From contig NC_092349.1 of the NCBI RefSeq assembly GCF_963676685.1, positions 75,970,473 to 76,034,472 of the forward strand: a DNA stretch of 64,000 nucleotides, written 5' to 3'. Position 1 is the first letter of the stretch, and each line of letters begins with the position of its first letter. The stretch comes from Mytilus edulis. Taxonomy: Eukaryota. Positions 5,456-57,496 of this stretch are shown here, piece after piece. Both the position numbers and the translations under genes were made by a program. The notes beneath the pieces are model-generated. The model was not told where the DNA came from. It saw nothing but the letters and a program-made list of their open reading frames with translations, and did not search any database.

Positions 5456-5489
5456 ATGTACAAAAAAAGAAGTTCCATTTGCAGGATAA

Positions 5490-5640
5490 TGATGAGTTCA
5501 CACGTAATTCGAATTCGATTCGCATTAACTAATTCGAATTAGTTTAATTCGCATTCGAAATGTTTTACGTCCTAACGTAAATTCTAATTCGAATTGCAAT
5601 GCGCGTTAAATTTGATTTACTGTCCAAACGACGTTAACTT
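5490..5640. repeat. Cluster of short palindromic AATTCGAAT-type motifs (low-complexity palindrome cluster).
   Basis: Read directly: taattcgaattcgattcgcattaactaattcgaattagtttaattcgcattcgaaatg...attctaattcgaattgcaatgcgcg. Confidence 0.6.
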
Positions 5641-7507: not shown

Positions 7508-7700
7508 AAGATGTGGTATGAGTGCCAATTATGAGACAACTCTCCATCCAAGTAACAATTTATAAAGTAACCATTATAAGTCAAGGCACGACTTTCAACA
7601 TGGAGCTATGGTTCACACCGAACAGCAAGCTATAAAGGACCCCAATATTACTAGTGTAAAACCTTTCAAACGAGAAAACCAACAGTCTAATCTATATTAA
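7508..7700 (+). repeat. Family A SINE/MITE-like repeat (diverged copy).
   Basis: gatgtggtatgagtgccaattatgagacaactctccatccaagt... is similar to the copies at 5256 and 57497. Confidence 0.75.
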
Positions 7701-8416
7701 AGCGAAAAATGAGAAACACTTCAACTGAATCATGGATATATTTAAATGAACAAAGATAAGTTAAAAATAATGACAATTATAATGCATTTTAAAGAAAAAG
7801 GAAGCTTGGAAATTATTTCCCAGTTGTATACACTCTTTACAAACTGCAGGGGATTGTATACTATTATGATTTCTTCATTGAGTTATTATCTTTCCTGTTT
7901 CTGCTCATATGTTTGTATCCACTGGTAAACATGCCACCTCCTTGGGAAATGTAAAACAATTTTAAAATGACTTTCTGTTGGATAAGTCTTTTATTGATAT
8001 ATAAAGTTAAAATATTCTTACTTCTAACTAGACAAGACACCTTTTAGGTGTATGCATGTGGATGAAAAAATGAAGTCTAAAAAATATTAACTTGGCAGCA
8101 ATTGCTTTAACATCCTTTAAGGCTTTGATTATATGATTGAAACAGGATTTTAAAAAATATCGCAAAAATTAAAATCGCATTTCAGTCTCAAATGACAAAA
8201 TCGCAATAATAAATGCACGCAATAATTTCTGAATTTACAGTATTGTTTTTATTACAGGCTTTTGATTTGGGACAGGCACATTAACTTGTTAGATGGCAAA
8301 CCCTCCCAGTAATCTGGGAAAGTCATTGAAAGTGGTGCGACAGCACAACACAAAATAAATATACAAAACAATGAACAAAAAAAAATATAAACAGCAAAAA
8401 ACAACACTGAGTATAT

Positions 8417-11020
8417 TTGTAGGACTCTAAAGTGCGATGGGGACGCTTAAATGCGATGGTCACGCTACAGTGCGATAGCCTACGCTAAAGTACGACGGTT
8501 TGATACGCTAAAGTGCGTTTTTCTGCAAATACATCGACGTTATAAACTTTCGACAGCATTATGACGAGAATGTTTGTCCAGATAAAGGATTTTTATTACA
8601 CGAGAAAAGAAAGAAGAGAAAAGAAAAACAAATGATCCCAATCTGGTTTTTTTGGTCGTTGCTGGAATAGGTTAACTTAATTTGTGAAACTGTAGAAATA
8701 ACTTTAATCAAAACATTTACTTATTAATTGAATTATTCAATACAAAAAAAATACTATACGGTTTGTTATTTCTGTTAAATAATAAATACTAGCATATGTC
8801 AATTAGACATCAACCTAACAAACCGATGTGTAGTATCATAATACTATATGATTGCCAATACGACAACTATCTATCTTCGACCTAATGGCATTGAAATATG
8901 CAACTTTAATTATGACCTTTAACACGGAGCATTGTCTTATAACATATTATTAGCTCACCTGTCCCGAAGGGACAAGTGAGCTTATGCCATCACTTGGCGT
9001 CCGTCGTCGTCCGTCGTCTGTCGTCGTCTGTCGTCTGTCGTCGTAAACTATTTCAAGAATCTTCTCCTCTGAAACTACTGGGCCAAATACTTTCAAACTT
9101 TAACTGAATGTTCCTTAGGGTATCTAATTTGTAAATTGTATTCGAAGTTTTGATCTATCAACAAACATGGTCGCCATTGCTAAAAATAGAACATAGGGGT
9201 CAAATGCAGTTTTTGGCTTATAACTCAAAAACCAAAGCATTTAGAGCAAATCTGACATAGGGTAATATTGTTTATCAGGTCAAGATCTATCTGCCCTGAA
9301 ATTTTCAGATGAATCAAACAACCCGTTGTTGGGTTGCTGCCCCTGAATTGATAATTTTAAGGAAATTTTGCTGTTTTTGTTTATTATCTTGAATATAATT
9401 ATAGATAGAAATAAACTGTAAACAGCAATAATGTTCAACAAAGTAAGATCTTCAATTAAGTCAATTTGACCAAAATTGTCAATTGACCCCTTAAGGAGTT
9501 ATTGCCCTATAAAGGCTTTTCACAATTTGTTCATCATGTTGACTTACTTTAAAAAATCTTCTCCTTTGAAACTGCTGTATCAATTTCAGCCAAACTTAGG
9601 CTAAATGAGTTTCAGAGTATCTAGTATAAATTTTATATTTTATTTCCTTATATGTCAAGAAACATAGATCCTATGGCTAAAATAGAACATAGGAGAAAAT
9701 GATTATTTTTTTTGGCTTTTGAAGAAAATAGGACGATCCAAAAAACATTTAAATAAATTGAAAAGCCAAAATAATCATTGATGAGAGATTTAACCAAAAG
9801 AATTAAGGTGAGCGATTCAGGCTCTTGAGAGCCTCTTGTTATATTAAAAAAGCGACTTCCACTACATTCCAGATGTACTAACATTATACTTCAGTGTAAC
9901 CATTACACCTTTTGAACAACTATCGTACTTTAAATAAACATAAGAAGATGTAGAATAAACTATCCATTCAATCCCAAATGCCGTTTATGTATGCGGCTAA
10001 TAATCATACGGCCGTCAACGTAAAGCATTGGTCCATGCCGCTACAAGCTATATAGGGTTATACAATGCCCAGTGTAAAACAATTCAAAAGATAAAGACTA
10101 CGGTTGACACATAATCAAAACAATAAACGAAAATGTAATAGGAACTCAGCAACAAACGAAAACCATTGCCTGAACCACATTCCCGTTACACCATCGGACT
10201 TTAGCGTGTCATACCATCGCACTTAAGGTAGCACTCCTCAGTTAGAAAATAAAATTAAAAATGAGCCCCAAAATGTTTTATCATTTCCTATTCCTGGATT
10301 TCTAATACATTAACCTTACTGTTTGTGTTGTACATGTGCATATGTATGTAATCAGTATCTTCCATAGATTTGATTTTCAAAAGTTAAAAGGGTGAAAGCT
10401 TAATTCCTTTTATGTGTATCCATGGCAACATTCTGCATTTATTTACCATAAAATATTGCAAAAAGGGGGGTGAACATGTCACATATCCCCCCAAAATTTG
10501 GATCAAACTAGAATTTCAATGCCTTTGAGTGATACCTTTTTAGAAACTGTTTTCATAAATCTTCCTAATGATCAAATAATAAATGGGTGTCTGGCGGCTC
10601 TGGCCCCTCATTTTTTCGTAAAATCCAATCACAAAGTTCGTGCGATAAAAATTTGGAAAATAACATTACAATAATTGCCAGACCAATGTATGGTATGGAC
10701 ATGCAAATACGGACTGTCATACAGAAAACAGCCTATATTACATACATTACATAACCTTGTTGTTCATATAAACCCAATACAAAGGCTATTTTAATACTCA
10801 GCTATCTAAAAATGAATTTTATTGCACACTAGCTCTCATATTTTAAAAATCCACAGGGACCAAAATGCGAAACTACACACCTAACTTTGGAGTGCTACCT
10901 AAGCATGATTTCTGATTGCACTTAAAAAACTAATAACCATCGCACTTTAGCATCTGACACCATCACACTTTAGCGTAGACCATTGTACTTTAGCGTGACC
11001 ATCGCACTTTAGAGTCCTAC
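8417..11020. mobile_element. TIR-bounded element about 2.6 kb long. Its ~100-bp terminal inverted repeats are made of 20-bp tandem subrepeats (ctaaagtgcgatgg...). A third, internal TIR copy sits at 10150-10232.
   Basis: Left end gtaggactctaaagtgcgatggggacgcttaaatgcgatggtcacgctacagtgcgat... (8417-8517). Right end 10940-11020 is its reverse complement and begins identically (gtaggactctaaagtgcgatgg). The interior carries family D and A-like repeats and no ORF. Confidence 0.7.
8950..9900 (+). repeat. Family D composite repeat (modules tcttctcct(c/t)tgaaac..., gtcaagatctatctgccctga, ttgggttgctgcccctgaattg, ctaaaatagaacatagg.. aatgcagttttt) with a (CCGTCGT)n microsatellite head.
   Basis: The same module order recurs at 60100-61195 and inside the 61200-64000 tandem units. 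The GTC-type simple repeat lies at 9000-9050. Confidence 0.7.
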
Positions 11021-11087
11021 ATATTTAAACCTTACAGATTAACCACAATTTCCACATGATTTTCAACTCCTGTATAATATTTTTCAG

Positions 11088-11178
11088 CAAGCTGGATGAC
11101 TTTGCAGGTGAATTTCCAAGTCTTATCCCGCCAGAAGTTACAATTGACGAGGAAAAGTTAAAACAGTGGGAGGCTGAG
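11088..11178 (+). CDS. Short coding exon (S)KLDDFAGEFPSLIPPEVTIDEEKLKQWEAE. It enters in phase 2 and leaves in phase 0.
   Basis: Acceptor tatttttcag (AG 11086-11087) and donor GAG|GTAAGA (GT 11179-11180). The entry phase matches exon 1290-1399 and the exit phase matches exon 12313. Confidence 0.55.
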
Positions 11179-12312: not shown

Positions 12313-14208
12313 TTATATAGCAGTCACTGTGATTTACCTCCCTTGCCACCAGATGACAGTGATTTAGACAGCAATCTTTCTGTCAAAGAAACTGATGGTA
12401 AATATTACACTGCAGTCGCTGTAGACAGTAATGTGAATACAATTAACAAGTATTATGCTCCAGATTTTGACCCTTCATTTAAACTGAATGAGAAGTCTAA
12501 AACAGTACCATCTCAGTTAGTGGATATTCAACCTGATCCATTAAATGCATCTACATCTATGATGTATGAAGCAGAAAAGATAACAAGTACTCAACCTACA
12601 CTTCTGGACTACAATCCACATACAGCAGGTAGCCTAACTGGACCAAATCACTTACCACAACCTCTTAGCTATAGCCATGCTTTCTCTGGATATCAACCAA
12701 CATGGCCACATTATAGGCCAACATCACCATCTTACGAGCCTACAAGTCCTGCTATCCCAGAGTTTCAACCAACATGGCGAAGTTATAGTCCAAATAACTT
12801 ACCACAATCTTTAAGCTCTAGCCATGCTATCCCACAGTATCAACAGACATCACCAAGTTACAGTCCAACATTGCCAACCTACCAGCCAACAAGTCCCGCC
12901 TATTTTATAAAATCATCTCATTTTCTTAAGAATCTTGATGGGAATATGTCTCTCTATGATCCTATAACTAGAGCTATGAAGGAAACAGAGTTAAAATGTA
13001 ATGTTAGAGGATGGGGAGGAGGAAGAAGTGTTAGAGGAATAGGCAGAGGAAGAGGTGTTAGAGGAAGGACAGAAGAAGGTAGAGATGTAAGAGGAGGAGA
13101 AAGCTGGAGAGGCCAGGAATACACTGGTCAATGGCCAAGAGGTAATAGTCAGAGTGGCTGGAATCAGAAAGATGATATAAGAGGGATGGAAAGAAAAAAA
13201 GAGCAAAGAAGTCATAGAAGATTTGATGAACATTTAGATAAGAGGGAGTCTGATAAATCTAAATCTAGGAGTATATCACCTCCAAATAGTAGACGTAGAA
13301 GATCAGGAAAACAATTGCCTCCTTTCAGAAGAGCTAGCAGATCAAGCTCTTACAGGAGACCCAGTAGATCTAGAAGTAGATCTTACAGGAGGCCCAGTAG
13401 ATCTAGAAGTAGATCTTACAGAAGACCCAGTAGATCTAGAAGTAGATCTTACAGGAGACAAAGTAGATCTAGAAGTAGATCTTACAGGAGACCCAGTAGA
13501 TCAAGAAGTAGATCACATTACACCAGAAGAATGAGGAGATCAAGAAGTAGATTGCCAACTTATAAAAGATATAGTAGATCTAGGAGTAGATCAAGACATA
13601 ACAGAAGACATAAGCGAAGTTCTTCTAGATCATTAAGTAGGGAACGAGATAGAGATAAAGGAGAGGGTGGCAACATCAGTGCCAGTAGCCATGATAGGCA
13701 ACTTGAAAGGTCTAGAAGTAAACGATCAAGTCATGTGATATCCAGAAGAAGAAGATTTTCAGGGTCAAAAAGTAGGAGACGATCATCAAGCACAACCTCT
13801 TCAAGGTCAGGAAGGAGAAGTTCAAGATTAATGAGCAGAAGTTTATCAAGGTTAGACAGAAGTTCATCAAAGAAAAAATCGAGAAGGTCAGGAAACTTAA
13901 GTAAAGTGAAACAAGTGACTAGCAGAAGTACCTCAAGATCAATATCCAGAACAAGACAATCCAGACAATCAAGATGGTCTGAACTTTCACCTGCAAGATC
14001 CAATGAAATATGGAGTTCAAGATTGGAGATGTTGGCAAAATCTGATTATGATGGCTTTATGAAAGCAAAGAGAGATTTAGTTTCTTATGAAAGTACAAGT
14101 CCATCACCTTTTAAAGATAACATATCAAAACGTAGAACAGATGATGAGAGAAAACAGCAGGGACATCCCTACCTATCTTCTTATCAAGACATAACTGAAG
14201 GTAACTAG
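12313..14208 (+). CDS. Large exon of about 630 codons. It holds degenerate RNA polymerase II CTD-like heptads (YQPTWPH, YRPTSPS, YEPTSPA, YSPTLPT, YQPTSPA), an RGG-like block, and a long Arg/Ser (RS) domain with the tandem unit SRSRSRSYRRPSR. The product is an SR-related protein.
   Basis: The ORF in the six-frame track is 621 aa (12343-14208). It is open back to the acceptor ctttttttcag (AG 12311-12312). The stop is TAG at 14206-14208, overlapped by a possible donor AAG|GTAACT at 14201. The heptads and RS dipeptide runs were read directly. Confidence 0.75.
   Translation, partial: LYSSHCDLPPLPPDDSDLDSNLSVKETDGKYYTAVAVDSNVNTINKYYAPDFDPSFKLNEKSKTVPSQLVDIQPDPLNASTSMMYEAEKITSTQPTLLDYNPHTAGSLTGPNHLPQPLSYSHAFSGYQPTWPHYRPTSPSYEPTSPAIPEFQPTWRSYSPNNLPQSLSSSHAIPQYQQTSPSYSPTLPTYQPTSPAYFIKSSHFLKNLDGNMSLYDPITRAMKETELKCNVRGWGGGRSVRGIGRGRGVRGRTEEGRDVRGGESWRGQEYTGQWPRGNSQSGWNQKDDIRGMERKKEQRSHRRFDEHLDKRESDKSKSRSISPPNSRRRRSGKQLPPFRRASRSSSYRRPSRSRSRSYRRPSRSRSRSYRRPSRSRSRSYRRQSRSRSRSYRRPSRSRSRSHYTRRMRRSRSRLPTYKRYSRSRSRSRHNRRHKRSSSRSLSRERDRDKGEGGNISASSHDRQLERSRSKRSSHVISRRRRFSGSKSRRRSSSTTSSRSGRRSSRLMSRSLSRLDRSSSKKKSRRSGNLSKVKQVTSRSTSRSISRTRQSRQSRWSELSPARSNEIWSSRLEMLAKSDYDGFMKAKRDLVSYESTSPSPFKDNISKRRTDDERKQQGHPYLSSYQDITEGN
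13330..13545 (+). repeat. Coding minisatellite: 39-bp unit (agtagatctagaagtagatcttacaggagaccc), about 5 copies, encoding repeated SYRRPSRSRSRSY.
   Basis: Near-identical 39-mers lie in tandem inside the RS domain of the 12313-14208 exon. Confidence 0.8.
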
Positions 14209-15440: not shown

Positions 15441-16524
15441 ACATCGAGAAGTAATTGAACCTTATTTGTTTATAGTCTGACAACAAATTTACTTAGTATT
15501 GCGCAACAGCACAGTGTATTGCACAACAGCAAAAAATCTTTAATTGAATATAAATTCAATTCATATAACCAATTTCAAGTTCTTTGACTACATTTATTCA
15601 GAAACCTATAATATGTCAAATATTTAATTATAATCCAAATTCAGCCCCGTATCATGCTTGAGTATTGTGTCCATTTTTGCCGCAACTGTTCAGGGTTGGA
15701 CCTATGCAAGCATATTCAGCTGTGCTCATTGAAGCAGTTCATTCCATATTAGTGGGACTTTGAAAAAATAAGCATATTCACCTCGGGAAAAAGTATATTC
15801 ACCTCGCAAAACGTCACTTCAGTAAATGTTTTATTAGATGGGGATAGGGAAAACACTGGTAAAATAATTTTTCAGCAATAGTAAGATTATTTTGATGAAT
15901 TGCCATAAAATCTATTAATTTTATTAATTTGGTAGTCAAATATTTGCTCTTTGAGGTCTGTGTGATAGGAAAAAGAGGTAAACCCTAATCTCTAAAGCAC
16001 TAAATTATTTTGTCAAATCCTATAGATGAACTAATTGTACAATTAACTTTATTTTTAAGACACACCAAGGCACCTTTTGGAAAAGAGTAAAGTAAGTTTT
16101 TTGAATTTCATCTATGTATTTCCATTCTTAATTTTATGAGCACATTTAGCACACCAGATGATGAGTTCTTTATATACTGGATATTGAATATCCTTTTTAC
16201 TGGTATTTTAATTTCCATGAAAAGTAATTGTACTATATACATGTAATAATATTATCTGGAAACTTTAGTGCAGAAAGGTCACTTGTTGTGATGTTGTAAT
16301 ATAGTTTTATTTTGCATAATAGAACATACCCCCACAAAAATATAGATTCTTATATTTTGATTCTTGAGTTACAGTAAAAATCTAAATGCTTTTATATATT
16401 ATATAATCTGTCATTCTGGTCTAGAAATTTAAGACATAGTTTGGATGCAATGTAAAAACTTTCATTGCATCATGATTTTCTAAATTTAGATTTGGAGGCA
16501 TGAAGAAGTAGGAGAAATGCACAG

Positions 16525-16900
16525 TTGTCCTCCACCAATGGAGAAACATATCATTATAAAAGTAAGTAACAAAACGTCATGACAATAATCCTCCACCAAT
16601 GGAAAAACATATCATTATAAAAGTAAGTAACAAAACGTCATGACAATGACCAACAAATAAGTAACTTGTTAACAAGTTCAAACAATATAGCTAGCACAAA
16701 CCATGACCATTGTCAATAAAGTAAGTAACCTATCAATCTGTCCACACACTATAGCTAGCACAAACCATGACCATTGTCAATAAAGTAAGTAACCAATCAA
16801 ACTGTCCACACTTTATAGCTAGCACAATAAGGGATGCTTAAACTCTGACCATGGTCACAAAGGTAAGTAACAAGTCAACCTGTACATACACTATATAACT
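16525..16900. repeat. Two adjacent short tandem arrays (~61-62-bp units), each unit containing the motif aagtaagtaac.
   Basis: 16530-16590 is nearly identical to 16591-16650. The 16690-16870 array repeats agctagcacaa.ccatgaccattgtcaataaagtaagtaacc.atcaa.ctgtccacac. three times. Confidence 0.7.
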
Positions 16901-17190: not shown

Positions 17191-17965
17191 AAACCATCAC
17201 CATTGTCATGTAAGCAACAAACCTAATGACACACGTAAGCCAAAGACGCACAGTCTTCAGCAATAGACAGCTGTCTTTGAAATTCTCACAGTTGCTTTTG
17301 GGTTTTTTCTACCCAATAAACATATTCTATACACATTGACATGTTAATTTAATGCATTGTGTATCAATGCCTAATGGTAAAGCCTTTGCCTTTGGTCAAA
17401 TTTAGATATTGATGACTAAATCTCACAATAATGTATGTTTAAAAAAATCAAAATTATGAATACTCGTATACCTGTCGATTTTTTTTACAAATAAACATCT
17501 GTTTCATGTCATTTTTATGTTCCATGTAGATTTATAATACTTTTTAATTTTTCAATTCAAGAAGCCAAAAAGTTGCCTTTCATATCTTCTTCATGGCTGA
17601 TTAAATCTTTCTTGATAGATTTTTTTTTACAAGGCTGATAGTGCCTTCAAAATACAGAAAATAATTTGACAACTAGTTTTTTATTTGGTTTTTATTTTGA
17701 ACAAATTAAATCATTGGAATTTATGCATAAATTAACAACAAATTATTTCATGATGAGAAAAAAAAGAAGGAAAATAAGTGCCACCAAGTGTATATCCAAG
17801 AAAGGTTTGAATTCTGACTCTTTTAATAATACAAATAGTTCCGCTTGAATACTTTTCATTATTTTAAGGGAATGATTTTTTTTTAGCCAAATTCTTGCTG
17901 ACATCTGATCTTAGTACAATGTATTGAGAATTCTATTTTTCACTAACAATCTCCTTTTGTTTCAG

Positions 17966-18164
17966 CTTCAATCTTTAGGAATTGACAGTAATACTATAAA
18001 ATTCCACACAGTTACTATGGAGTCTGATAAATATATATGTGTCAGAGAAAACAACCAGCTGATCATATTTAACATAGATAATCCCAAACATCCATACAGA
18101 ACACCAGTACAGGCGGACTCCTGTATCGTCAATCCCAGAAAACAACATATTGTAGCAGTAAGAT
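17966..18164 (+). CDS. CLTC: Clathrin heavy chain exon (LQSLGIDSNTIKFHTVTMESDKYICVRENNQLIIFNIDNPKHPYRTPVQADSCIVNPRKQHIVAVR, ends phase 1).
   Basis: This matches the conserved clathrin heavy chain N-terminus [31 protein letters not shown]...[21 protein letters not shown]. Acceptor ttttgtttcag (AG 17964-17965) and donor AGAT|GTGAGT (GT 18165-18166). Confidence 0.85.
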
Positions 18165-18165
18165 G

Positions 18166-18512
18166 TGAGTTTTATTGCCCCATCTACAACAGTAGAGGGG
18201 CATTATGTTTTCTGGTCTGTGGGTCCATTCATTTATTAGTCCATCCTTCCATTCCTATATCGTACCGTCTGTCCCGCTTCAGGTTAAAGTATTTGGTCAA
18301 GGTATTTTTTTTAAGTTGAAGTCCAATCAGTCCAATCAACTTGAAACTTAGTACACATGTTCCCTATGATATGCTCTTTCTAATTTTAATATCAAATTAG
18401 AGTTTTAATCCCAATTTCACATTCCACTGAACAAAGTGTGAGTGGTGCATCTGTGTACTATGGACACATTCTTGTTAGATACAATAGATTACAATTTAAT
18501 GCCATGGTAAAA
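18166..18512 (+). mobile_element. Family C MITE copy: head ..gccccatctacaacagtagaggggcat, a (CCGT/CCAT)n-like core, then caggttaaagt.tttggtcaaggta...gtccaatcaacttgaaacttagtacacatgt...gtgtactatggacacattcttgtt. It is inserted directly after the clathrin exon donor.
   Basis: Other copies lie at 18757-18885 (partial), 20684-20862 (3' half), 33470-33592 (internally deleted) and 50118-50582 (with an internal duplication). Confidence 0.8.
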
Positions 18513-18756
18513 AAAGAAAAAAACAACCAAAGGCAAACAACACAGTACACAAATTACAACATAGTCCATCAGTTTTGCTGTTTCCTTTAAAGATTGAAAA
18601 AATACCAAGATGAATGTCAATTCCATGGTATATTTTCTCTTTAAGATCTTTAGACTATAAAGCTTTAAAATGTCCACACAATCATTCCCTTGTCAGAAGA
18701 TATCAGTTTAATTATCCCATGTACTCTACCGCTCTTCGTTACTATTCTAGTATATT

Positions 18757-18885
18757 TATTATGCCCCAATTATGGGCATTATGTTTTCTGGTCTGTGGGT
18801 CCATTTCTCCGTTCGTTCGTTCGTCCATCTGTCCATCCCTCCGTTCATCCCGCTTCAGGTTAAAGTTTTTGGTCAAGGTAGTTTT
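18757..18885 (+). repeat. Family C MITE, partial copy (tgccccaattatgggcat...(tccgttcgttcg)n...caggttaaagtttttggtcaaggtagttttt).
   Basis: Same head, simple-repeat core and following block as at 18166 and 50118. Confidence 0.7.
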
Positions 18886-20207
18886 TAATGAAGTTAAAGA
18901 ACACCTAAATGTCAAATAAACTTAATGCAATTTTTTCCCCTCCAATTGCAAGTTATTTCAAGCATAACTGTCAAGTTTTGTCTCAGTCAGAACTATAGTT
19001 TCAGAGAAAATCACTATAATGTAAGGCCATATCCTACGGCAATTTCAGTCCAATTTCTTCGAAAAATCCTAATTTCAGTGTATCATTATAAAATGCAGTG
19101 TTGACTAATATCTGATCATAAACTCATGATATATGCATTCAAACAATTAAATAGAATACAAAAGACAACTTTAAGATGATAAACAATTTTATTGCACCTT
19201 TTAGAGTTCATTTGAAGGTCTGTTTTGGTCTGTTTTGGTCCATTTTTCCTCCTTCCTTCCTTTTTCATCAAAACTTGATATCTTTTGTCTAAAAAATAAA
19301 ACAAATGGGATTATTTTCCCACAAAAATGAAATAAATGTAATGTTAAATCAATAATTAAAGTGTTTTAGCTGAAAGAACTGTCTCTATAAATGTTAACAG
19401 TCTACACGGAAGTTTCTATAAGCCCTTATGTGTAACTTGAGTTTTTGGTCTGTTCCCCTAGTGTGAGAAATAACGGTTCCCTTTCAGTCAAGCATTTATT
19501 GCTACTGGTATCAAAGTCTTTTTATTTACTCATAACAGTATATTTCTAATAGATTTACACAAAAAGTCCACTTTCTTGTATTTTACGTTAGAAAATGGGG
19601 AGAAAGAGTAATAAAAAAATACCTCAAAATGTTTTTAAAAAGGGTTATGTCCCTTGGAATGCTGGTACAAAAAATAATTAGTAAGAATTATAAAGTTTAA
19701 GTATGTGAGACTGGATTCTGATGTGTATAAATCCAGGACAAATAAGTGTTTAGATGAGTTATTGTCTGTGCAAAATGTAGACGGCACAATGGCAAATTGT
19801 TAACTTTTGCGGCCAAAACAAAACAAAAACATGATGATAGTTGATACATACTTTAATGCTGAAGTGTCATCTGCAGACCAATTCACATATAAGATTTTTC
19901 AACAGAATGCTCTTCAGAACATGGTTAACACTGAAATAAAAAATTCACATGTTGTATAAACAAAACAAAAACTGTAACTGTAAGGGTAATTTAAAATTTA
20001 ACACAGTAATCTAAATACAGCTTCGTCTGTCCACCCATTTGACTAAGAAAACACCTGTAAACCCCCATTTCAATGCAATTTTACCTCAAACGTACTTTCT
20101 GTGTCTAAATCCATTCCGAATAGTCCATGTTTACAATGTATGAACTGGTTTATTAATAACTTTTAAAAATGAAAGTACAATAGGGTCACGAGTGCACACT
20201 TAGTTTC

Positions 20208-20683
20208 CCTAAATAGGTGTAATACCACCATTGATTTTTCCCTATTAGTCTTTGTTAAATTGGCACTTTTAAAAAAATCGTATAGTATTTACCTTTATTT
20301 CAACCAAAGAAATACTTTGCATGTGTAAAGTTCAATCCTTTCCAGTGATACAGTGAAAATTTCACACTACATTTCATTGCATATAAGAAAGTAACCACCG
20401 CCGAGGGTAGACAACCCAATTTTTACACTGTTATTTACTGGTTACCTGCTTTGGTAACTATGTAACCTTAACGTTCCAAAATATTTTATAAGACCATCAA
20501 ATAAAAAAAGAATGATGCTTTCAGACACCCAACATACATATTTAAGACTCAGAAAAATTTAAGTGCATTGAAATGCAGGGTTAATTTTCTACAACTGTCA
20601 AATTCAAGGGAATATTTTTTTAGGCCTACTTTCGTATGCAACCGGATGTGACGTACCATGATTTGGTGGTATTACACCTAAAG
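20208..20683. mobile_element. Family F MITE (~476 bp) with perfect 15-bp TIRs (aggtgtaataccacc / ggtggtattacacct). A second copy lies at 57012-57472.
   Basis: The two copies align end to end, with a shared internal block ctacaactgtcaaattcaagggaatattttttt.g.cctactttcgtat.caaccggatgtgacgtaccatgatttggtggtattacacct. Confidence 0.8.
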
Positions 20684-20862
20684 TCCAATCAACTTGAAAC
20701 TTAGTACACATGTACCTTGTGATATGATCTTTCTAATTTTAATGCCAAATTAGAGATTTTCCCCTTTTTTTACGGTCCATTGAACATAGAATATGATATT
20801 GCAGATGGGGCATCTGTGTACTATGGACACGTTCTTGTTTTAGTATGATCTGAGATAGACTA
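20684..20862 (+). repeat. Family C MITE 3' half, directly adjoining the family F MITE (nested or adjacent insertion).
   Basis: aaagtccaatcaacttgaaacttagtacacatgtaccttgtgatatgatctttctaattttaatgccaaattagag...ggcatctgtgtactatggacacgttcttgtttt. Confidence 0.7.
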
Positions 20863-20978
20863 TCATAGATCCAATTTGCAATGGGTACATGTATCTTATA
20901 TTAATAAGTTTTTTGTCGAATTTATGCCAATTCTCATCAGATTTATATATATCATGTTTATATGAATTTTACATACAG

Positions 20979-21128
20979 GTGGCAAAACTATACAACTATA
21001 TGATTTACATAACAAGTTGAAGATAAAGGGATACCAGATGGAGGAAGATGTCAAGTTTTGGACCTGGATTTCTGATGATGCTGTTGCTATGGTGACAGAT
21101 AAATCAGTTTATTTGTATAATCATTCAG
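20979..21128 (+). CDS. CLTC: Clathrin heavy chain exon (CGKTIQLYDLHNKLKIKGYQMEEDVKFWTWISDDAVAMVTDKSVYLYNHS, phase 1 in and phase 1 out).
   Basis: Matches [51 protein letters not shown]. Acceptor acatacag (AG 20977-20978) and donor CAG|GTAGAC (GT 21129-21130). Confidence 0.85.
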
Positions 21129-21169
21129 GTAGACTGCTATGAAATTTTGCTAAATATTACATTAATTAT

Positions 21170-21480
21170 ACCCGCACTTCAAAAAAGTGGGGTATGCTGT
21201 ATTATCTCTGTCTGTCCATTCATTTGTCCATCTGTCAGTCCGTCCTTTCAATGAATATTTTTCGCACGCATCTTTCTCAGGAGCCACATTACAAGGATTT
21301 CTGAAATTGAGTTTCCCGGTTTATATAAGTCAACTTTTCCATGTGATGTGTTTTCAGATTCCTCACTCAACAACTTCCTGTTTACCAAATATTTGGGCGG
21401 GGGTATCATCAGTGAGCAGTAGCTTGCAGTTTCATTTGTTTAACAAGCACAGAGAGACATTATTCGATATGTAATTGAGA
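21170..21480. repeat. Intronic repeat related to family C (ctgtccattcatttgtccatctgtcagtccgtcc simple core).
   Basis: The core motif resembles the family C simple-repeat centre. The ORF at 21187-21474 here is not supported as coding. Confidence 0.4.
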
Positions 21481-21639
21481 GGGAGAGGATGGGGTCTCAT
21501 CCTGAAATCTTGAGAGAAAAAAATGACAGATCTCAAAAATTTTCATGTGATTAGTGTGTCTGTTCCTGCATCATGATCTAATTATTGCAAACCAAATGTA
21601 ACTTTTCCACAAAACCATCTCCTATTGGTCAATCTATTT

Positions 21640-21960
21640 AACTTGTGTAAGCTCTATTGTCCCATTGAATAAATACAATAGCTATTGTGGGGGGTGGGGT
21701 AGGAGGGGTCCTGATCCTGAAATCCCAGGCTTAAAAACATGAAATCCTGAGGTCCCGAATTTAAATAAATTTAAATCCTGACATCCAAAAATTCGAAATT
21801 AGAATTTCTGGATCCAGAAAGAGTCTATCCCGAAATCCCAAGCTTAAAAACACCTGATCCTGAAGTCCTGATAAAAGTCCTATCCCCCCTCTATTGTTTT
21901 CTGTGTAGTTTATTCAATGGGAACTTTAAATTTCTTCTAAGAAAAATCCATCACTCATTG
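21640..21960. mobile_element. Foldback element with inverted ends (ctctattgtcccattgaataaatacaatagc ... ctattgttttctgtgtagtttattcaatgggaac). Its interior repeats gatcctgaaatccc(a/g)ggcttaaaaaca.ctgatcctga(a/g)gtcc. Related in sequence to 32150-32400 and 3646-4512.
   Basis: The ends are visibly inverted. The internal motif recurs at 21700-21860 and again, reverse-complemented, at 32160-32400. Confidence 0.6.
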
Positions 21961-22646
21961 ATCTTCTGAAAGATGAAAATACATGTTTTTACTAACAAAA
22001 CTGCCTGCATGTAATTCAAGGATTTAATTCAATATCAATAATATATTATTAATCTGTTCAATGTAAACAATGATTCAAACATTTAAAATTTTCAACATAT
22101 TTCATATTAATTTGAATCAGATAATTTAGTTCCTCACTACAGACATAACATATATAGAAAATTATGCACCCCTGTAAGTTTTTAGGTAAAGATTGCATGA
22201 AATGCAATCAAAACCTTACGGGACTGATATGATATCTAAATCTTCCAAGACTTATTATACATTTTTTGATACACAATTGATCATAACATTCTATAATCCT
22301 ATCCATGAACATTTCCAGATATTTATTGATGTAATATATGCTCAGATATTCAAGGCACAAAATGATGTTATACTTGTCAAGAAAATTACATAACTTTTGT
22401 AAGGTGCAGAATGAGAATTCTAATATCTATTCTAAAAATATAAATGATCTCATTGCAAAAGTCATCTTTAAAACTCATTGGAGTTATCTTCCTTTGTCTA
22501 GAATTTCTGTTAAATCAACTTACAACCAATGCAATATTTTCTTCCCACTGTCATTAAATTGAAGCAATCTTTACCCTTAGTGCTTACAAGCACTTTGATT
22601 CACTTCAAAATTAAAAAAAAATCACATTCTTTCACTGTTTTTACAG

Positions 22647-22759
22647 ATGGACCACAGAAACTTTATGACCATAATAGAACGTTGAACAACTGTCAGGTGG
22701 TTGGATACAAGATGGACCCTGATGGACACTGGTCAGCCTTAACATGGATATTGAAACAG
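22647..22759 (+). CDS. CLTC: Clathrin heavy chain exon (DGPQKLYDHNRTLNNCQVVGYKMDPDGHWSALTWILKQ).
   Basis: Matches [39 protein letters not shown]. Acceptor tttttacag (AG 22645-22646) and donor CAG|GTCGTA (GT 22760-22761). Phases 1 in and 0 out are consistent with the neighbouring exons. Confidence 0.85.
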
Positions 22760-23442
22760 GTCGTAAAATAGAAAAAGATATAACAAAAAATGGAGGGATG
22801 GTGGAAATAAATCTTTCAATTCATTATGCTACAGGGGGATTTCATTTTACATACTCATTAGGAAAATGAATGAACAATTGCATGATGTATCATTTCATCT
22901 TCATGAACAAAAATGTGAGATGTAATAGCGATTTCTTTAAGAAGCTCACTGCACACTGATATATGTATCAAATAAATGAGAATGCAGGTCGTTATCAAAT
23001 TGAAATACTCATCCAGTTGCATTATTCACTTTTAAAAAAAAACTCACAATTATTTTGCAATCATACCAAATCTTCTTATTTTCATTTTGTCAGATCTCAT
23101 GAAATCAAAATGTTTGTAAGGCAGTCATGACATATTCCTACAAAATAAGATTGCTTTACATTCTTTGGATTCATACAGTTTCGTAGGTACCAATTTTCAT
23201 GGATTAAGGAAAACATACATGTTTAATTTCTTGATTTTGCCAAGGTCTTCATAAAAGCCTGTGGAAAATTTGTTATTTGTTAAGCATTAATTTCGTGGTT
23301 CACCTGTACCCACAAAATCCACAAAAACTAGAATCCAACGAATAATAATGACAGTATGTTTCATGTAGTTGAAATTTGCAAAAAAATGTTATTGAAACGT
23401 AAGGTCAAATTTAATGTATAAATATTAACCTTATTATTACAG

Positions 23443-23604
23443 GAGGATAGAGTGATTGGTTTCACACAACTGTACTCCTTACAGAGCTGCATCAAGAGAC
23501 TGTTTGACAGTCACACAGCAACCTTTACTAAGCTGACAGTAGATAATAATCCAGCTCCCTCTATGCTATTGTTATATGCCGTACGAGAGGACTATGGGGG
23601 CAAG
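23443..23604 (+). CDS. CLTC: Clathrin heavy chain exon (EDRVIGFTQLYSLQSCIKRLFDSHTATFTKLTVDNNPAPSMLLLYAVREDYGGK).
   Basis: Corresponds to [54 protein letters not shown]. Acceptor ttattattacag and donor AAG|GTAGAT. Length 162 nt, phase 0/0. Confidence 0.85.
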
Positions 23605-24458
23605 GTAGATAAATGAATATTTTGATTAAATGATGCTTATTTGTTTATGCCCTTGTAGTAGCGGAGAGGCATTAAGTTTTACCATTGTATGCCTGTACGT
23701 CCAGAAATTGATTTCTGTTCTTATGTTTGCCGCAACCAAATGTAATGAAACTTAAACACAATTATAGTTATAACTACAAAACACAGATCAAGTTTGAATT
23801 TTACTGGTGTCACTTTTACCTCTCTGGAGTTATGCCCCTTTAAAAATGGAAAATAGGTATCTGTTCTCTCACAAAACCAAATGTTATGAAAATGATACAC
23901 AATGCTTATTACATCAAAACTCAGATTAAGTAAATATTTGGATAGTGTCACTTTTACCGTTCTTGAGTGATATTGCTTTACAATTTTAAATGCCAACAGG
24001 GACACACTGTCTTCATTTAATTTAAATTTGTAAACCTTATTGAATAATGTAGATATATGATGATAAACAAAGAGTTGACAATTTGTTACACTTTCAGGTA
24101 GCAATAAATTTCAGAGTCTAAAGATTAATAAGTATGCTCATATGATTTGTGAAAGGAAACACAATCAGAAACACAGCTATAATATAAAAGATTTAAATAT
24201 TTAATTTTAATATCAGTATAGGCTTTTATAATACATGCAGTCAAACTACTTGAAAATGTTATAAAAATGGCATATTAAAAAAAATCAGGGTCAAGTTGTT
24301 CTTGCTTCTAAGGAAAGCTAAGTACAACTTATAAGCCATAGCTATTGTTAAGATACTGTTACTCAACAAACCAATTTTATATATATACTTAAAAAAGAAA
24401 TAAGATATATTTTTTCATATTAATTTGTACTGATTTTCTTTTTCTAAATTAATTCCAG

Positions 24459-24566
24459 CTTCACATACAAGAAGTAGGTCAACCCTGTCATGGTAACCAG
24501 CCTTTTACAACCAGAATTGTTGATATCGATTTCACAGACAAAGATGACTTTCCTATTGCAATAGAG
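24459..24566 (+). CDS. CLTC: Clathrin heavy chain exon (LHIQEVGQPCHGNQPFTTRIVDIDFTDKDDFPIAIE).
   Basis: Corresponds to [38 protein letters not shown]. Acceptor aattccag and donor GAG|GTAAAA. Length 108 nt. Confidence 0.85.
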
Positions 24567-24890
24567 GTAAAACTACCTGATATATTTAATGAAACATGTC
24601 CTGTTTTCCATTGAAAGAGAAACCAATAATCCAAAAAGGAGTGCTGCTAAAAATGTATGGCAATTAAACTGACCATTTAATATATGTAGAATGATTTCTT
24701 TTAGATCATCTGGTCAACAATTAAATGATTAGAAAAATGTTTAGAATGTCAACATACTTTTACATGCAATCTTTTTGGACCCAAATTATCATATATCTCC
24801 GTTTAGCCTCTTGTTTTATTTTATATTATATAGGTTATAACTATTTTATTATGTTCGCAAATATTTACATAATTATAATGGTTATTGTAG

Positions 24891-25058
24891 GTTAACATAA
24901 AGCATAGGGTGGCTTTCCTGATAACAAAAACAGGTTATGTACATCTGTACATGATAGAAACAGGGAGACTTATCTATACAATGAGGATAAGTGATTCTAC
25001 AGTGTTTGTTACAGCTCCTAACGAGAAAGGATTTCTGGCTGTCAATCAGGTTGGATGG
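24891..25058 (+). CDS. CLTC: Clathrin heavy chain exon (VNIKHRVAFLITKTGYVHLYMIETGRLIYTMRISDSTVFVTAPNEKGFLAVNQVGW).
   Basis: Corresponds to [58 protein letters not shown]. Acceptor gttattgtag and donor TGG|GTGAGT. Length 168 nt. Confidence 0.9.
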
Positions 25059-26836
25059 GTGAGTCATATAAGGCATATTAAATATTATACTTACTTAATG
25101 TACATACCTGTCAACCTGTGACAATGAAAAAGCAGGTCATGACCTGCATTGAAGAATGAAATCTCAGGTCATAACGCATACAAACTTTTTCGAGCTGAAT
25201 TTCAGTATTTAGGAGACATTTTTCTTATCATTCAAAGTTTCCAAAACATATTCACTTGGTTAAGTAATCTAAAATTTTATTAACCATTATTTCATTGGAC
25301 TTTTAAAAGCTTTTGATAAATTTGTGTAACACTGCCTCTATTTTTTTTCTTATTGATCTTCATACAATGTACTATATCTGATTGTCATTACGTGCATGAT
25401 ATCAACTTCAACCTCAAATATCATTTACTAATTTTATATTTTACAATTGGAACTATGTGAAGTCCTTTAAGGGCTTTTCAGCTCTTCAACATGTTATTTA
25501 ACTCCTGATTAATGAAATTAGAGTATAGTAAAATAAAGTTAAACAGTTAAAGGAAGTATAAATGAAAAAAATTTTCAACTACTAGTATTTATTTTATAAT
25601 TGTATAAAGGTATGAAACAATGAAAAGTAATATCTCAATATGTATTTGAATGCTATTTGTACGAGATTTAATCTTTTTTACCCCCAAAAACGTAAATATA
25701 AGGAACAATTTTGAATGGTGACAAAAAAGGGAAAGTAACTCAAGTTGTACACAAATTATTTATGACCTAAAGCTAAGGTATAAATTGGTGTTAATTAACA
25801 GTGTGTTTGACACCAAAGCTGTCAAGTGAAGCCATCCACTTCATGGGTCACTAAATTTGACAGTTGTAACACAGCTAGCTGAACTTCCTGTTCATGAAAG
25901 AATTACAAATTTGCCGGTATTTCAAAGGAAAATCACTTATGAAATCAATCTCAAGGCTAAGAAATCCAGGTCAAAACGGGTCATTTTCCGAATTCCCGGG
26001 TTAATCAATGACCCGGCGGGTGTCCCGGGTGATCCCTCAGAATTGTGAAAATCTCGGGTCTCACACGCAAAATAAGGGTCAGTTGACAGGTATGAATGTA
26101 ATTCAAAAACTATTTACTGCTGGTGTTCTTTTGTATGACCGTGCCGCTAAGGGAATGAGGCATTATGAGTTACCTTTGACCAATCATTTGTCTTTCTGTC
26201 TACCCCATATTCGTTTCCGCACTCTCACTTCAGTTTTTTTCATTTAAATTTGATAAATTCATACACAATGCTAAAAACCAATACTCACACAAACAGCTCA
26301 AATATGGAATGAGAATCACATTTCTAGAGTTATGCTCCTTTATAACTTTGAAGGTTGCAAATGTTTTCATTTCCACACACTACAATGGTGCTACTAGGCC
26401 TTGCCTACCAATATCTTGTATATATCATATTCTTTTTACTATTTAATCCAATTTCAATTGGTGGGGGGGACTTAAATATAATTGAAATTAAAAATATAAT
26501 AGTAACATTCCATTTTCTCAAACAATCAAAATTTATAAGTACATCTTTACAGGATTGTTTATTTGGGTTTATGACTCTTATACCTTTTGTACATTACTAG
26601 AAAATCCTGGGGAATGATTTTTGTCCACATCTATGCTGTTGGCAAATTTTTGTACTCAAATTAGAGGCAAACTGAGAACGAGTATATCTGAAGTGCAATG
26701 GTATTTCCCCATATGATAGTATGCAAGACATTTTTAGCTCACCTGGCCTGTAGTGTCTGGTTGAAAAAGAGGTATTTTCACCCTTAAAGTAGTTTTTTGA
26801 TTTTCTGAGTTTTTTTTTTATGTTTGTTACTTTAAG

Positions 26837-26941
26837 GTAATGTCAGTTGACATCAAAGAGGACAAGCTAAAATCATACCTACCAGAAAAGGTAACCAGTT
26901 CTCTGGGACCAGCTAAAGAACAGTTCCTGAGGCAATATCAG
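26837..26941 (+). CDS. CLTC: Clathrin heavy chain exon (VMSVDIKEDKLKSYLPEKVTSSLGPAKEQFLRQYQ). This is the last clathrin exon I can find in the window.
   Basis: Corresponds to VLSVCVEEENIIPY...LAGAEELFARKFN. Acceptor tactttaag (AG 26835-26836) and donor CAG|GTAATG (GT 26942-26943). Confidence 0.75.
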
Positions 26942-27354
26942 GTAATGATGTGACAACTTACAGTTATATTAAATAAGAATCATATTTACCACCAAAGTCT
27001 ATTATTGATGAGAGACATGCTAAAGAACAACTATAAACATCACATAAACCAGATAGAGGTCAATTCTGCTGTCCTTATGACAATGTTTAACTTAACTTTC
27101 ATTGTTATACTACCTCCTTGGTGGTCGAGTGGTAGCAGGTTCTCCTCAAATGCAAGAGTTTATAGAACTGATTCCATTTCTAAAAGGGAAAATCCATTGT
27201 TTTCCTTTTTATCTTTGTAAACTATTTTAAGATTAATTTAATACATTAAATGCTTTTTTAATACTTTATTACTAACTTGAGTATTAGATTTTTCATATTG
27301 GCTATAGAATTTTTACAAATTTTACAATATCTTGTAAATTTATTATGAAATGTT

Positions 27355-30101: not shown

Positions 30102-30851
30102 TTATTCCAATACAATGAAACTAGAGATTAAATTGATTAATATATAAAATGAGAAATGTGAAAACTTATATAGATAAGAACTAGACCGACTTACAAAACA
30201 TTCCTCTCGCTCATTTTCCAATAATCTCCTTAGTTCTGCTGGAATGTCTTGATCAACGGATGGTCTTTGTCTTTTCAATTGCTGTTTGGGTAACAAAGGG
30301 AGAATCCATTTTGCCTTTGATAGAACTTTTGTCCTTCTGTATGGCAGACTGTCTCTAATTTTTTCTAGATGTCCAAGAAATCCTCCCCACCACTTTTGCT
30401 CTGTATGTTCTATTTGATCAGTGAATAGACATTGCCACTGTGGTATTCTAGATTTGATCTTATTTATATCTATCTTCTCGAATTGAGGATTGATAACTTT
30501 TGGTATTCCCTTTGGTAAATTAGGTTTCCCGGAAATTAGTTGAATAATGCCATGTTCAGTTTTCCATTCGCTGTCTTGGAAAGCTTTGTACTGCATTTTC
30601 ACATTATGTGTTGCTAAATCCCGGATAAACTTATAATGCAAAGGTTTAGTATGCTTACGAATGTCGTTAAGGCTTGATGTTATCCATGAACGAATGTCAT
30701 AAATAGCCTCTATATCCTTAACGTTCGGAAGCATCTCCTTCAGACGAGGCATTGTTTCAGCATCATTCCTACGAAGAGTTTCAGCTATTCGGCTAAAAGC
30801 AGCATCCACATCTTCGTGTGTATGTCCTACTGGTAAAAATGATAAATGCAC
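30102..30851 (-). CDS. Terminal exon of a transposase-like gene: VHLSFLPVGHTHEDVDAAFSRIAETLRRND... about 249 codons to the stop. It carries the probable third catalytic acidic motif (HTHEDVD).
   Basis: The track shows an ORF at 30102-30851. On the minus strand an acceptor ttttcttttcag immediately precedes it. Phase 0 joins it to exon 32844-32960. Confidence 0.65.
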   Translation of the reverse strand: MHLSFLPVGHTHEDVDAAFSRIAETLRRNDAETMPRLKEMLPNVKDIEAIYDIRSWITSSLNDIRKHTKPLHYKFIRDLATHNVKMQYKAFQDSEWKTEHGIIQLISGKPNLPKGIPKVINPQFEKIDINKIKSRIPQWQCLFTDQIEHTEQKWWGGFLGHLEKIRDSLPYRRTKVLSKAKWILPLLPKQQLKRQRPSVDQDIPAELRRLLENEREECFVSRSSSYLYKFSHFSFYILINLISSFIVLE

Positions 30852-33469: not shown

Positions 33470-33592
33470 TTGTTATGCCCCACCTACAATAGTAGAGGGG
33501 CATAGTGTTTTCTGGTCTGTGCATCCGTAAGCCCGTCCGTCCGTCCGTCCGTTCGTTCGTTCGTGTACTTTGGACACATTCTTGTTATGTTA
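33470..33592 (+). mobile_element. Family C MITE, internally deleted derivative: head gccccacctacaatagtagaggggcat, (CCGT)n core and tail gtgtactttggacacattcttgtt only.
   Basis: Both termini of the family are present, about 120 bp apart. The interior seen in the 18166 and 50118 copies is absent. Confidence 0.7.
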
Positions 33593-36601: not shown

Positions 36602-37194
36602 TTATACCTTTTTGACTTTAAGATTGGGTAAATATTTTTTCCACATTCCGTAGAAGGCTGATGGCATTAAAAATTCTTCTGATCTTTCCTTCATATCTTC
36701 TTTATATCTTATATAAATCATGCACTGTCGTGTCCGATAAGGTAGTAAGAGTGTATTACAGTCGGGCATCCTGTCAACGTAATATGTAGCGTATTCTTCC
36801 AGCCAGTTTATAGCTTGGAGTGATTTTATGCTGGCACAGTAGTGTCTCTCCGATACAGAAAAACGTGCTCCTCCTATGAACTTTTTTCTATTAGAGTAAT
36901 AGAAATTTTTGTGAATTCCAAGCATTCTCATCAATGCCTTTGGACAAACGACATGTCCGTTCTGTATACGGAAGTATGGTGTATACTCCATATTAGTTTC
37001 AGAGAACTTTTTTAATAACCACTGGTTGCGACCATTTATTGTCTTTGACCAGAATTCCAATCGCATGTTTTTAACCTCCACAAGAGAGAATTTCTTCGTA
37101 CAAACTTTACTACAACAGCGCCTACATGACTTTAAATCCTTCTGAATACTTGCTACTTTTGTATGACGAGCAAGGAGACGACTTCTCTCTGGAT
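36602..37194 (-). CDS. Terminal exon of a second minus-strand gene: (H)PERSRLLARHTKVASIQKDLKSCRRCCSKVCTKKFSLVEVKNMRLEFWSKTINGRNQWLLKKFSETNMEYTPYFRIQNGHVVCPKALMRMLGIHKNFYY...KVKKV, running to the stop. It has a Cys-cluster (CRRCCSKVC) domain.
   Basis: The track shows an ORF at 36602-37081. The frame is open upstream to the minus-strand acceptor catttttgtag (ctacaa at 37195-37200 on the plus strand). The phase-1 entry matches the donor of exon 38509-39439. Confidence 0.55.
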
Positions 37195-38400: not shown

Positions 38401-38508
38401 GTCATTCTATATTACTTTCTAACTTATGGATAGAGAGTTGTCTCATTGGCACTCATACCACATCTTTCTATCTCTATTATGATAACAAACAAAAAAAAAA
38501 ACACTTAC

Positions 38509-57472: not shown

Positions 57473-57496
57473 AGATCTTTGTAACATAATAGATAT

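Follow-up and report, generated by a model that had tools for sequence, protein, structure and literature searches.

We analysed a 64,000-nucleotide stretch of Mytilus contig NC_092349.1 (positions 75,970,473 to 76,034,472 of the forward strand), referred to as the window. It is AT-rich eukaryotic DNA, with about 32% GC, and all its close protein and DNA matches are from Mytilus mussels. On its plus strand lies a gene containing seven exons that resemble the beginning of clathrin heavy chain (CHC; CLTC in humans), which a preliminary description, made from the letters of the DNA, had presented as an N-terminal fragment of CLTC. In the window, 17 exons bounded by AG and GT assemble into one open reading frame (ORF) of 3,954 nt, i.e. 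1,317 codons, with no stop except the one at its end. The gene extends beyond the window at its 5' end, and the reading frame closes with TAA at position 59058. The ORF is orthologous to LOC143077023 of M. galloprovincialis, the product of which (XP_076109027.1, denoted P0002; 1,391 amino acids) was the best match of an exhaustive search. In P0002, residues 872-1207 form the clathrin-like propeller (92% identity), after which comes the tail also found in the window. In public records the gene is labelled 'uncharacterized protein' in M. galloprovincialis and 'CLTC' in M. edulis and M. coruscus. We compared it with loci from assemblies other than that of the window, L001 (M. galloprovincialis), L002 and L005 (M. 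coruscus) and L003 (M. edulis); its coding identity was about 96% to M. galloprovincialis and M. edulis and 93% to M. coruscus. The encoded protein would consist, in this order, of an acidic stretch, a histone-H3-like segment, a low-complexity region rich in S/P and RS, the propeller and a C-terminal domain resembling MINT, the C-terminal domain of PARP4. The features are as follows.

908 to 1111, plus strand: upstream coding exon, acidic and D/E-rich, in frame in the 17-exon ORF, with AG/GT boundaries; matches P0002 and the M. edulis protein P0153
1290 to 1399, plus strand: exon with the histone H3-like segment (H3 residues 31-58); profile matches to PDB histone H3 chains, E=3e-7
11088 to 11178, plus strand: small coding exon, SKLDDFAGEFPSLIPPEVTIDEEKLKQWEAE, member of the 17-exon ORF
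12313 to 14200, plus strand: large S/P-rich and RS-repeat exon; donor GAAG/gtaac, an unspliced reading stopping two codons further on
16060 to 16091, plus strand: mini-exon of 32 nt, (D)TPRHLLEKSK, with an in-frame 6-nt indel relative to M. galloprovincialis and M. edulis
16490 to 16561, plus strand: exon before the propeller, IWRHEEVGEMHSCPPPMEKHIIIK, ending in ...PPPMEKHIIIK; donor gtaagt, phase 0
17966 to 18164, plus strand: terminal-domain exon 1 of 7 (CHC residues ~15-83), clathrin homology, AG/GT
20979 to 21128, plus strand: terminal-domain exon 2 of 7, holding clathrin-box residues T87, Q89, Y91, K96 and K98
22647 to 22759, plus strand: terminal-domain exon 3 of 7, with W-box residues Q152, V154 and I170 and an in-frame 6-nt indel relative to the other species
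23443 to 23604, plus strand: terminal-domain exon 4 of 7, clathrin homology, AG/GT
24459 to 24566, plus strand: terminal-domain exon 5 of 7, clathrin homology, AG/GT
24891 to 25058, plus strand: terminal-domain exon 6 of 7, in which the M. coruscus assembly has a 1-nt deletion
26837 to 26941, plus strand: terminal-domain exon 7 of 7, covering the final strand of the propeller (up to about CHC residue 338) followed by a non-clathrin spacer; donor CAG/gtaatg, phase 0
27167 to 54151, no strand assigned: DNA transposon of 26,985 bp with terminal inverted repeats (TIRs) and a target-site duplication; empty site in three other Mytilus assemblies
55394 to 55433, plus strand: distal exon ETKREITENKENK, entered in phase 0 and left in phase 1
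56085 to 56173, plus strand: MINT-like domain exon 1, DPSDLGGIWQGLVRVKKRLSLMDALPPLYE, continuing the frame; found by tblastn with the tail of the M. coruscus protein P0001
57728 to 57827, plus strand: MINT-like domain exon 2, GQFYNLTPDLCDMLGLSYNRIHDILKLQGLYSLG, the stretch closest to human PARP4 residues 1584-1616
58736 to 59058, plus strand: MINT-like domain exon 3, ending in ...DFLRNLYFACKI and TAA; amino acids 100% identical to M. edulis

The seven plus-strand exons between 17966 and 26941 were found where the preliminary description had placed them, with AG...GT boundaries and compatible phases, and encode 335 amino acids without a stop. The homology to the clathrin terminal domain (TD) that it had proposed was borne out by matches to Pfam Clathrin_propel (PF01394; E=5e-13), to clathrin TD chains in the PDB (e.g. 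1bpo, 1c9i and 5m5r; E=6e-87, CHC residues 13-337) and, in an exhaustive HMMER scan, to the human CLTC fragment P0003 (E=2.5e-78). The exons had, however, also been called well-conserved CLTC, and they share only 36-56% of their residues with human CLTC, exon by exon, and about 44-46% overall (CLTC 1-325). Among animals, canonical clathrin heavy chains share about 80% of their residues with one another (fly versus human, about 80%). The similarity ends at about residue 338, which is the end of the propeller, and exon 26837-26941 closes with 23 residues that do not resemble clathrin; the linker, which had been included in a homology said to run over residues 15-395, is not present. A tblastn search of the 64-kb window with CLTC detected nothing past residue ~324 and no sequence resembling the clathrin leg. 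The query in this search was an approximate human CLTC, and the result was reproduced with P0003 and the PDB chains. Of the parts required in a clathrin heavy chain, the linker, the CHCR leg of about 1,300 amino acids and the C-terminal trimerisation domain are missing, the frame running into unrelated exons.

We considered the possibility that the locus is a genuine CLTC with a huge intron, the remaining 25 or so exons lying past the end of the window. In its favour are only the clear similarity to the terminal domain and an exon boundary where the preliminary description expected that between CLTC exons 1 and 2. Yet, the same search retrieved a rotifer CHC-like sequence with 71% identity to human CLTC, as compared with the 44-46% of the mussel propeller, and nothing in the window resembles clathrin past residue ~338. 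Moreover, the frame enters the MINT-like exons and terminates at 59058, and the orthologous loci share this short architecture. We regard this explanation as almost certainly wrong, and a canonical CLTC was rejected on the grounds of divergence and of the C-terminal stop. Splicing from 26941 to clathrin exons beyond position 64000, which had been put forward as the observation that would overturn the reading as a fragment, is impossible as an outcome, because the frame ends at 59058. The clathrin-like exons are a diverged, propeller-only paralogue of the clathrin heavy chain and not CLTC. Since they are interrupted by introns, this paralogue would have arisen by duplication at the DNA level and not by retrocopying. 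Without the leg and the trimerisation region, the protein could not form triskelia or clathrin lattices, and the propeller could act only as a platform for binding peptide motifs.

Four ligand sites are known on the clathrin terminal domain, namely the clathrin box (Q89), the W-box, the arrestin box and the Royle box (PMC11543927). All Mytilus copies retain the W-box pocket (F27, Q152, I154V and I170). At the clathrin box, T87, Q89, K96 and K98 are canonical in the window and are changed in the other species, with Q89L, K96N and K98E in M. galloprovincialis and M. edulis, and T87I and K98E in M. coruscus. Residues of the arrestin box (R188, Q192) and of the Royle box (E11) are altered. Compared with the terminal domain of CLTC (CHC17), the mussel protein shares the homologous seven-bladed propeller and the W-box residues F27, Q152 and I170, but differs by its low identity, by the missing linker, CHCR leg repeats and trimerisation domain, and by the changes in the arrestin and Royle boxes and the variation of the clathrin box among Mytilus species.

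A detached propeller is not unique to the mussel, as TD-only proteins are predicted in several other animals. These include a Heterodera protein (TD and MSP), a Glandiceps 'clathrin heavy chain 1-like' protein (TD, linker and SH3-like tail) and short forms from Pristionchus and krill. Like the mussel protein, these proteins (470-730 amino acids) have a legless propeller joined to unrelated C-terminal regions. Unlike it, they have no MINT-like tail; they are 31-39% identical to the mussel propeller and of separate origins. When the propeller was used in a word-indexed protein search, a single M. coruscus protein (P0001) was retrieved, and the orthologues that are 92% identical were missed.

P0001 (244 amino acids, labelled 'CLTC') begins within propeller exon 6 and, past the propeller part, has a tail of about 185 residues that do not resemble clathrin. 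A tblastn search of the window with this tail located the stretches 55394-55433, 56085-56173, 57728-57827 and 58736-59058, the last of which ends with TAA. Exon 26837-26941 is left in phase 0 and exon 55394 is entered in phase 0, and the distal splice sites are canonical. The gene is therefore not devoid of distal exons, as had been thought: these four continue the frame, though they are not clathrin-like.

The C-terminal domain encoded by the distal exons comprises about 170 amino acids and ends at the stop codon. When it was compared by phmmer with all PDB sequences, the sole match at E<=10 was human PARP4 residues 1581-1637 (E=0.0029), the mussel sequence EGQFYNLTPDLCDMLGLSYNRIHDILKLQGLYSLGISVQ being aligned with EDGFWKLTPELGLILNLNTNGLHSFLKQKGIQSLGVKGR of human PARP4. 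In a tblastn search with the human PARP4 segment, only exon 57728-57827 and its orthologues matched, with E values of about 1e-5 in each of four loci (the window and three orthologous ones). The Smith-Waterman score of the pair was 88, versus a mean of 25.7 (SD 4.4, maximum 56) for 20,000 shuffles, which corresponds to a Gumbel P of about 7e-9. The precomputed annotation of P0001 contains a faint match to PF26156 ('PARP4_MVP-ID'). The aligned core is followed by 85 residues in the mussel versus 87 in human PARP4, and the lengths on both sides fit the human MINT domain (residues 1562-1724). A word-indexed search with the C-terminal domain returned two M. coruscus proteins only, and one with a 56-residue segment of human MINT gave no match, a type of search that had also missed the propeller orthologues.

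Several observations weigh against this assignment. No Pfam match was found by hmmscan of the C-terminal domain, even at E<=10, and a profile built from four close or near-identical orthologues gave E=0.044, which is worse than the E=0.0029 obtained with the single sequence. The AlphaFold2 model of the C-terminal part, taken from P0001, consists mainly of helices and is unusable, with a mean pLDDT of 38.6. The equivalent of K1618 is a serine in the mussel, though S1614 is kept, and the region of R1689 could not be aligned. Taking all this together, we consider it likely, on the strength of the alignments, that the C-terminal domain is homologous to PARP4 MINT, at a level below formal membership of the Pfam family.

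In humans, MINT docks PARP4 to repeats 3-5 of MVP within the vault, through contacts involving S1614, K1618 (key) and R1689, and fusion to MINT is sufficient to load proteins into the vault lumen (PMC12280208). The PARP4 MINT domain is an all-helical fold of about 8 helices. With this domain (PF26156; PDB 9bw6, 9bw7 and 11jf) the mussel domain shares the motif F[YW]xLTP[DE]L...H..LK..G..SLG and S1614, the extreme C-terminal position and a similar size (about 160 amino acids), and its locus adjoins a PARP4-like gene. It differs in that its match is sub-threshold in Pfam and K1618 is not conserved, and in that it is joined to a clathrin propeller and low-complexity regions and not directly to PARP, VIT and VWA domains.

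Copies of MINT sequence were also observed outside these exons. The intron preceding one of the MINT exons contains degenerate copies of the exon start (QGQFYNLTPDLC..., with its acceptor) at window positions 56741-56773 and 57471-57500, and there are at least six such copies in M. coruscus (L002 22848-23879). These look like a minisatellite-like expansion of the exon 5' end, providing potential decoy acceptors. In M. coruscus the three MINT exons are found once more, as a partial copy (P0152) about 50 kb downstream (L005 6167-11941); no propeller exons were found in the 10 kb preceding it.

The gene had appeared truncated because a 27-kb transposon occupies the intron that separates the seventh propeller exon from the distal exons. 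The presence of transposon sequence after 26941, already recognised in the preliminary description, was traced to a TIR-bounded element starting at about 27167. Its TIRs read ACTGA(T/A)TCCATTTCTAAAAGGGAAAAT, and their 20-nt core is found exactly twice, in inverted orientation, at 27174 and 54144 (0.03 expected by chance). On either side of the element lies a (T)TATAG duplication of the sequence present at the empty site, and subterminal TTTTGGTCT...AGACCA motifs occur at both of its ends. In the alignment with M. galloprovincialis, window segments 26755-27165 and 54149-54805 abut at a single point of L001, at about 30255. The intron (26942-55393) measures 28.4 kb in the window, versus about 1.6-1.8 kb in M. 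galloprovincialis, M. edulis and M. coruscus. The earlier idea of an enormous repeat-filled intron with nested genes was thus partly right: there is such an intron, nearly all of it one transposon with ORFs, but the exons beyond it encode a MINT-like domain and not the clathrin leg.

What had been taken for independent genes on both strands beyond exon 26837-26941 are ORFs carried by this element. They comprise a minus-strand DUF7869 ORF (30102-30851; E=3.7e-27), two further minus-strand ORFs (36602-37081 and 38477-39439) and a multi-exon set on the plus strand at about 46.7-52.4 kb. Against Pfam, the plus-strand ORFs gave only sub-threshold matches, Agenet/chromo-like (an Agenet/Tudor-like piece) and coiled-coil. 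The transposon may contain nested elements.

We also observed a family of short interspersed repeats, with copies at 18168-18476, 18774-18899, 20682-20839, 33476-33521 and 50113-50466, which in one frame translates into ...SVRPSVRP...FRLKFLVKV.... The copy just past the GT donor of the first propeller exon, reported previously, does start at 18168. It is present at the same site in M. galloprovincialis and is hence an old insertion.

The coding sequence on the two sides of the transposon was compared between species. In M. galloprovincialis and M. edulis alike, the 12 exons from MEKHIIIK to the stop use the same splice sites and form intact ORFs of 528 amino acids; in M. coruscus, exons 3-12 of these 12 are present, which is all that the compared locus covers. 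Propeller exon 7 is linked to the distal exons in the gene models of all three species, M. galloprovincialis (RefSeq XP_076109027.1), M. edulis and M. coruscus. By the Nei-Gojobori method, dN/dS was 0.25-0.29 for the propeller in comparison with the three species, and 0.19, 0 and 0.25 for the distal part in comparison with M. galloprovincialis, M. edulis and M. coruscus, respectively. Fisher tests indicated dN < dS in the five comparisons to which they were applied (P from 9e-5 to 8e-9), one of which, with M. coruscus, concerned the distal part alone (P=9e-5). Indels are multiples of 3, and exon identity was 89-99%, versus 72-96% for the flanking introns. By these measures, summarised as a dN/dS of 0.22-0.29 (P<1e-4), both halves of the gene are under purifying selection, as distinct from a decaying fragment. 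The suggestion that the locus is a truncated paralogue or pseudogene therefore holds as regards a propeller-only paralogue, and fails as regards a pseudogene or remnant of a duplication in view of the intact ORFs, in-frame indels and dN/dS; a pseudogene fragment was rejected on the basis of the intact ORFs and dN/dS.

Synonymous divergence was not uniform along the gene. Relative to M. galloprovincialis and M. edulis, dS was 0.138 upstream of the transposon (17966-26941) and 0.036 downstream (55394-59058), i.e. about a fourfold difference, and relative to M. coruscus it was equal (0.17) in both halves. The unequal dS across the transposon points to a divergent allele or to a haplotype that is recombinant or introgressed.

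Certain observations do not sit easily with an intact gene extending over both halves. In M. coruscus (L002 9912-10078), propeller exon 6 has lost one nucleotide in a T-run, so that the 'CLTC' model of that species starts at an internal methionine; the loss reflects either an assembly error or a decaying copy. The sole Logan contig encoding the last 76 residues (run SRR29152239; 99.3% identical) is collinear genomic DNA and therefore uninformative on splicing. The joining of 26941 to 55394, and its survival of the 27-kb insertion, are deduced from frames, conservation and the gene models of others. Finally, the clathrin-box pocket varies among Mytilus species, so that ligand binding at this site is not clearly conserved.

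These points lead to another explanation, in which the product is a propeller-only protein, or the locus a decaying duplicate, and the models that include the MINT exons are annotation artefacts. Reading through the donor at 26941 leads to a stop after three codons (VMM), so that intron retention would yield a propeller-only product, and the 27-kb insertion could impair splicing in the window haplotype. The frameshift in the M. coruscus propeller exon fits such a view, as does the fact that the connection of propeller to MINT stems from gene models and sequence and not from RNA. Yet, the phase 0-phase 0 junction is kept in four genomes. No ATG that could start the distal exons by themselves precedes exon 57728, and in three assemblies these exons follow the propeller on the same strand at a distance of only 1.6-1.8 kb. 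In addition, the same purifying selection acts on both halves, and the annotations of M. edulis, M. coruscus and RefSeq M. galloprovincialis all join them. We consider this explanation very unlikely.

The preliminary description had also reported the first exon to be missing within about 3.5 kb upstream of the propeller. A conserved exon (16490-16561), located through the P0002 sequence that precedes the propeller, lies 1.4 kb upstream and joins LQSLGIDS... of the first propeller exon in phase 0. Judged by its residues, it is too diverged from MAQILPIRFQEHLQ to be recognised. The RefSeq-type model treats this exon as internal; it contains a conserved ATG at 16538, which could be an alternative start. 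Further upstream, the frame continues through the mini-exon 16060-16091 to the RS-rich exon ending at 14200. In the window only, a 61-bp tandem duplication (16529-16650) of the 3' end of exon 16490-16561 and its donor (CCTCCACCAATGGAGAAACATATCATTATAAAAGTAAGTAACAAAACG...) yields a second ...PPPMEKHIIIK/gtaagt donor at about 16622, M. galloprovincialis and M. edulis having one copy.

The 1.9-kb exon 12313-14200 has no Pfam match. It encodes S/P-rich repeats followed by long RS/SRSRSYRRP repeats, and its protein sequence is only about 65% identical to that of M. galloprovincialis, so that it changes much faster than the propeller and MINT parts. The H3-like segment in exon 1290-1399 spans 24 residues. 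An upstream exon of M. edulis (L003 14287-14547) opens with MPARSGGKGSGKLLATKAARKS... and repeats LATKAARKSAPETGGV. These H3-like pieces look like mimics of the H3 N-terminal tail, separated from the alphaN-like piece by an acidic insert. The intron that follows exon 1290-1399 (1400-11087) measures 9.7 kb in the window versus about 1.7 kb in M. galloprovincialis; blocks 1823-8129 and 8417-11027 are without counterpart at the orthologous site and hence represent additional insertions.

The immediate upstream neighbour of the gene, on the same strand in L001 and L003, encodes BRCT, PARP_reg, PARP, VIT, VWA and ubiquitin-like domains. Such a set of domains is peculiar to PARP4 (PMC12280208). None of the BRCT, PARP catalytic, VIT and VWA domains is found in the 1,317-codon ORF of the window, all being in the separately annotated upstream gene. 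No other MINT-like sequence was found in the 3' 8-10 kb of this PARP4-like neighbour that were examined. We rejected a recent duplication of the last exons of the neighbouring PARP4 as the source of MINT, as no second MINT-like copy occurs in that 3' region. The simplest interpretation, we infer, is that the exons encoding MINT represent the original 3' end of PARP4, before which foreign exons were shuffled in. The foreign material between the catalytic part and MINT would consist of the H3-like piece, the low-complexity exons and a partial duplicate of a clathrin gene.

We next asked whether the whole locus could be the 3' part of one giant PARP4 gene with an internal clathrin propeller, the upstream BRCT-PARP-VIT-VWA-ubiquitin-like exons being spliced in. 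MINT is normally the C-terminus of PARP4, and the neighbour is devoid of it in its 3' 8-10 kb. Moreover, P0153 of M. edulis opens midway through a ubiquitin-like domain, the first half of which is in the upstream PARP4-like model, indicating that annotation has split one gene, and P0153 bridges on to the propeller and MINT. Yet, RefSeq ends the coding sequence (CDS) of the PARP4-like gene at a stop codon (L001 8377-8379) and has LOC143077023 begin separately at L001 10001. The M. edulis bridge alternates frames within a repeat and looks like an ab initio prediction, and the H3-tail-like exon, which opens with a methionine (MPARSGGKGSGKLLATKAARKS...), could be an independent start; the junction itself lies outside the window. 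We hold a giant PARP4 to be unlikely.

The explanation that we favour, and that we regard as probable, is that the window contains an intact, mussel-specific chimeric gene under selection, in which known domains are combined in a new arrangement and the clathrin-like exons form one module. The architecture of a propeller joined to MINT is new, the component domains and the gene record being already known; among the papers listed by a literature search, none paired PARP4 with clathrin.

As to function, the MINT-like domain would dock the protein to the inner wall of vault particles, and the propeller would serve as a platform for short linear motifs, with the W-box pocket as its conserved site. 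MVP has been reported in Mytilus proteomes (PMC5302490, PMC10345040). By binding MVP, the MINT-like tail would tether the propeller to vaults and make the protein a natural MINT-tagged adaptor. It resembles in this respect the engineered vault cargoes in which a foreign module is placed N-terminal to MINT (PMC12280208). These are laboratory constructs, whereas the mussel fusion is natural and its packaging would be by analogy only. A more far-reaching proposal, which we advance tentatively and consider rather doubtful, is that mussels evolved a vault 'cargo adaptor', in which the propeller, the H3-tail-like segment and the RS-rich region are tethered inside or onto vaults by a PARP4-type MINT and recruit proteins with clathrin-binding motifs. 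This adaptor would have been born by exon shuffling into the 3' end of PARP4, splitting the docking domain from the enzyme.

For the annotation of mussel genomes, these findings mean that the 'CLTC' label given to the gene in M. edulis and M. coruscus records is misleading and that, in genome scanning, a 27-kb transposon insertion can give an intact gene a truncated look. The locus would be a clean case of exons having been shuffled in next to PARP4 or within it. Provided that the protein is produced and does bind MVP, it would be a natural counterpart of vault loading by MINT fusion. If this were true, it would offer a handle on the unclear function of vaults, through the question of which motif-bearing proteins a vault-tethered propeller captures.

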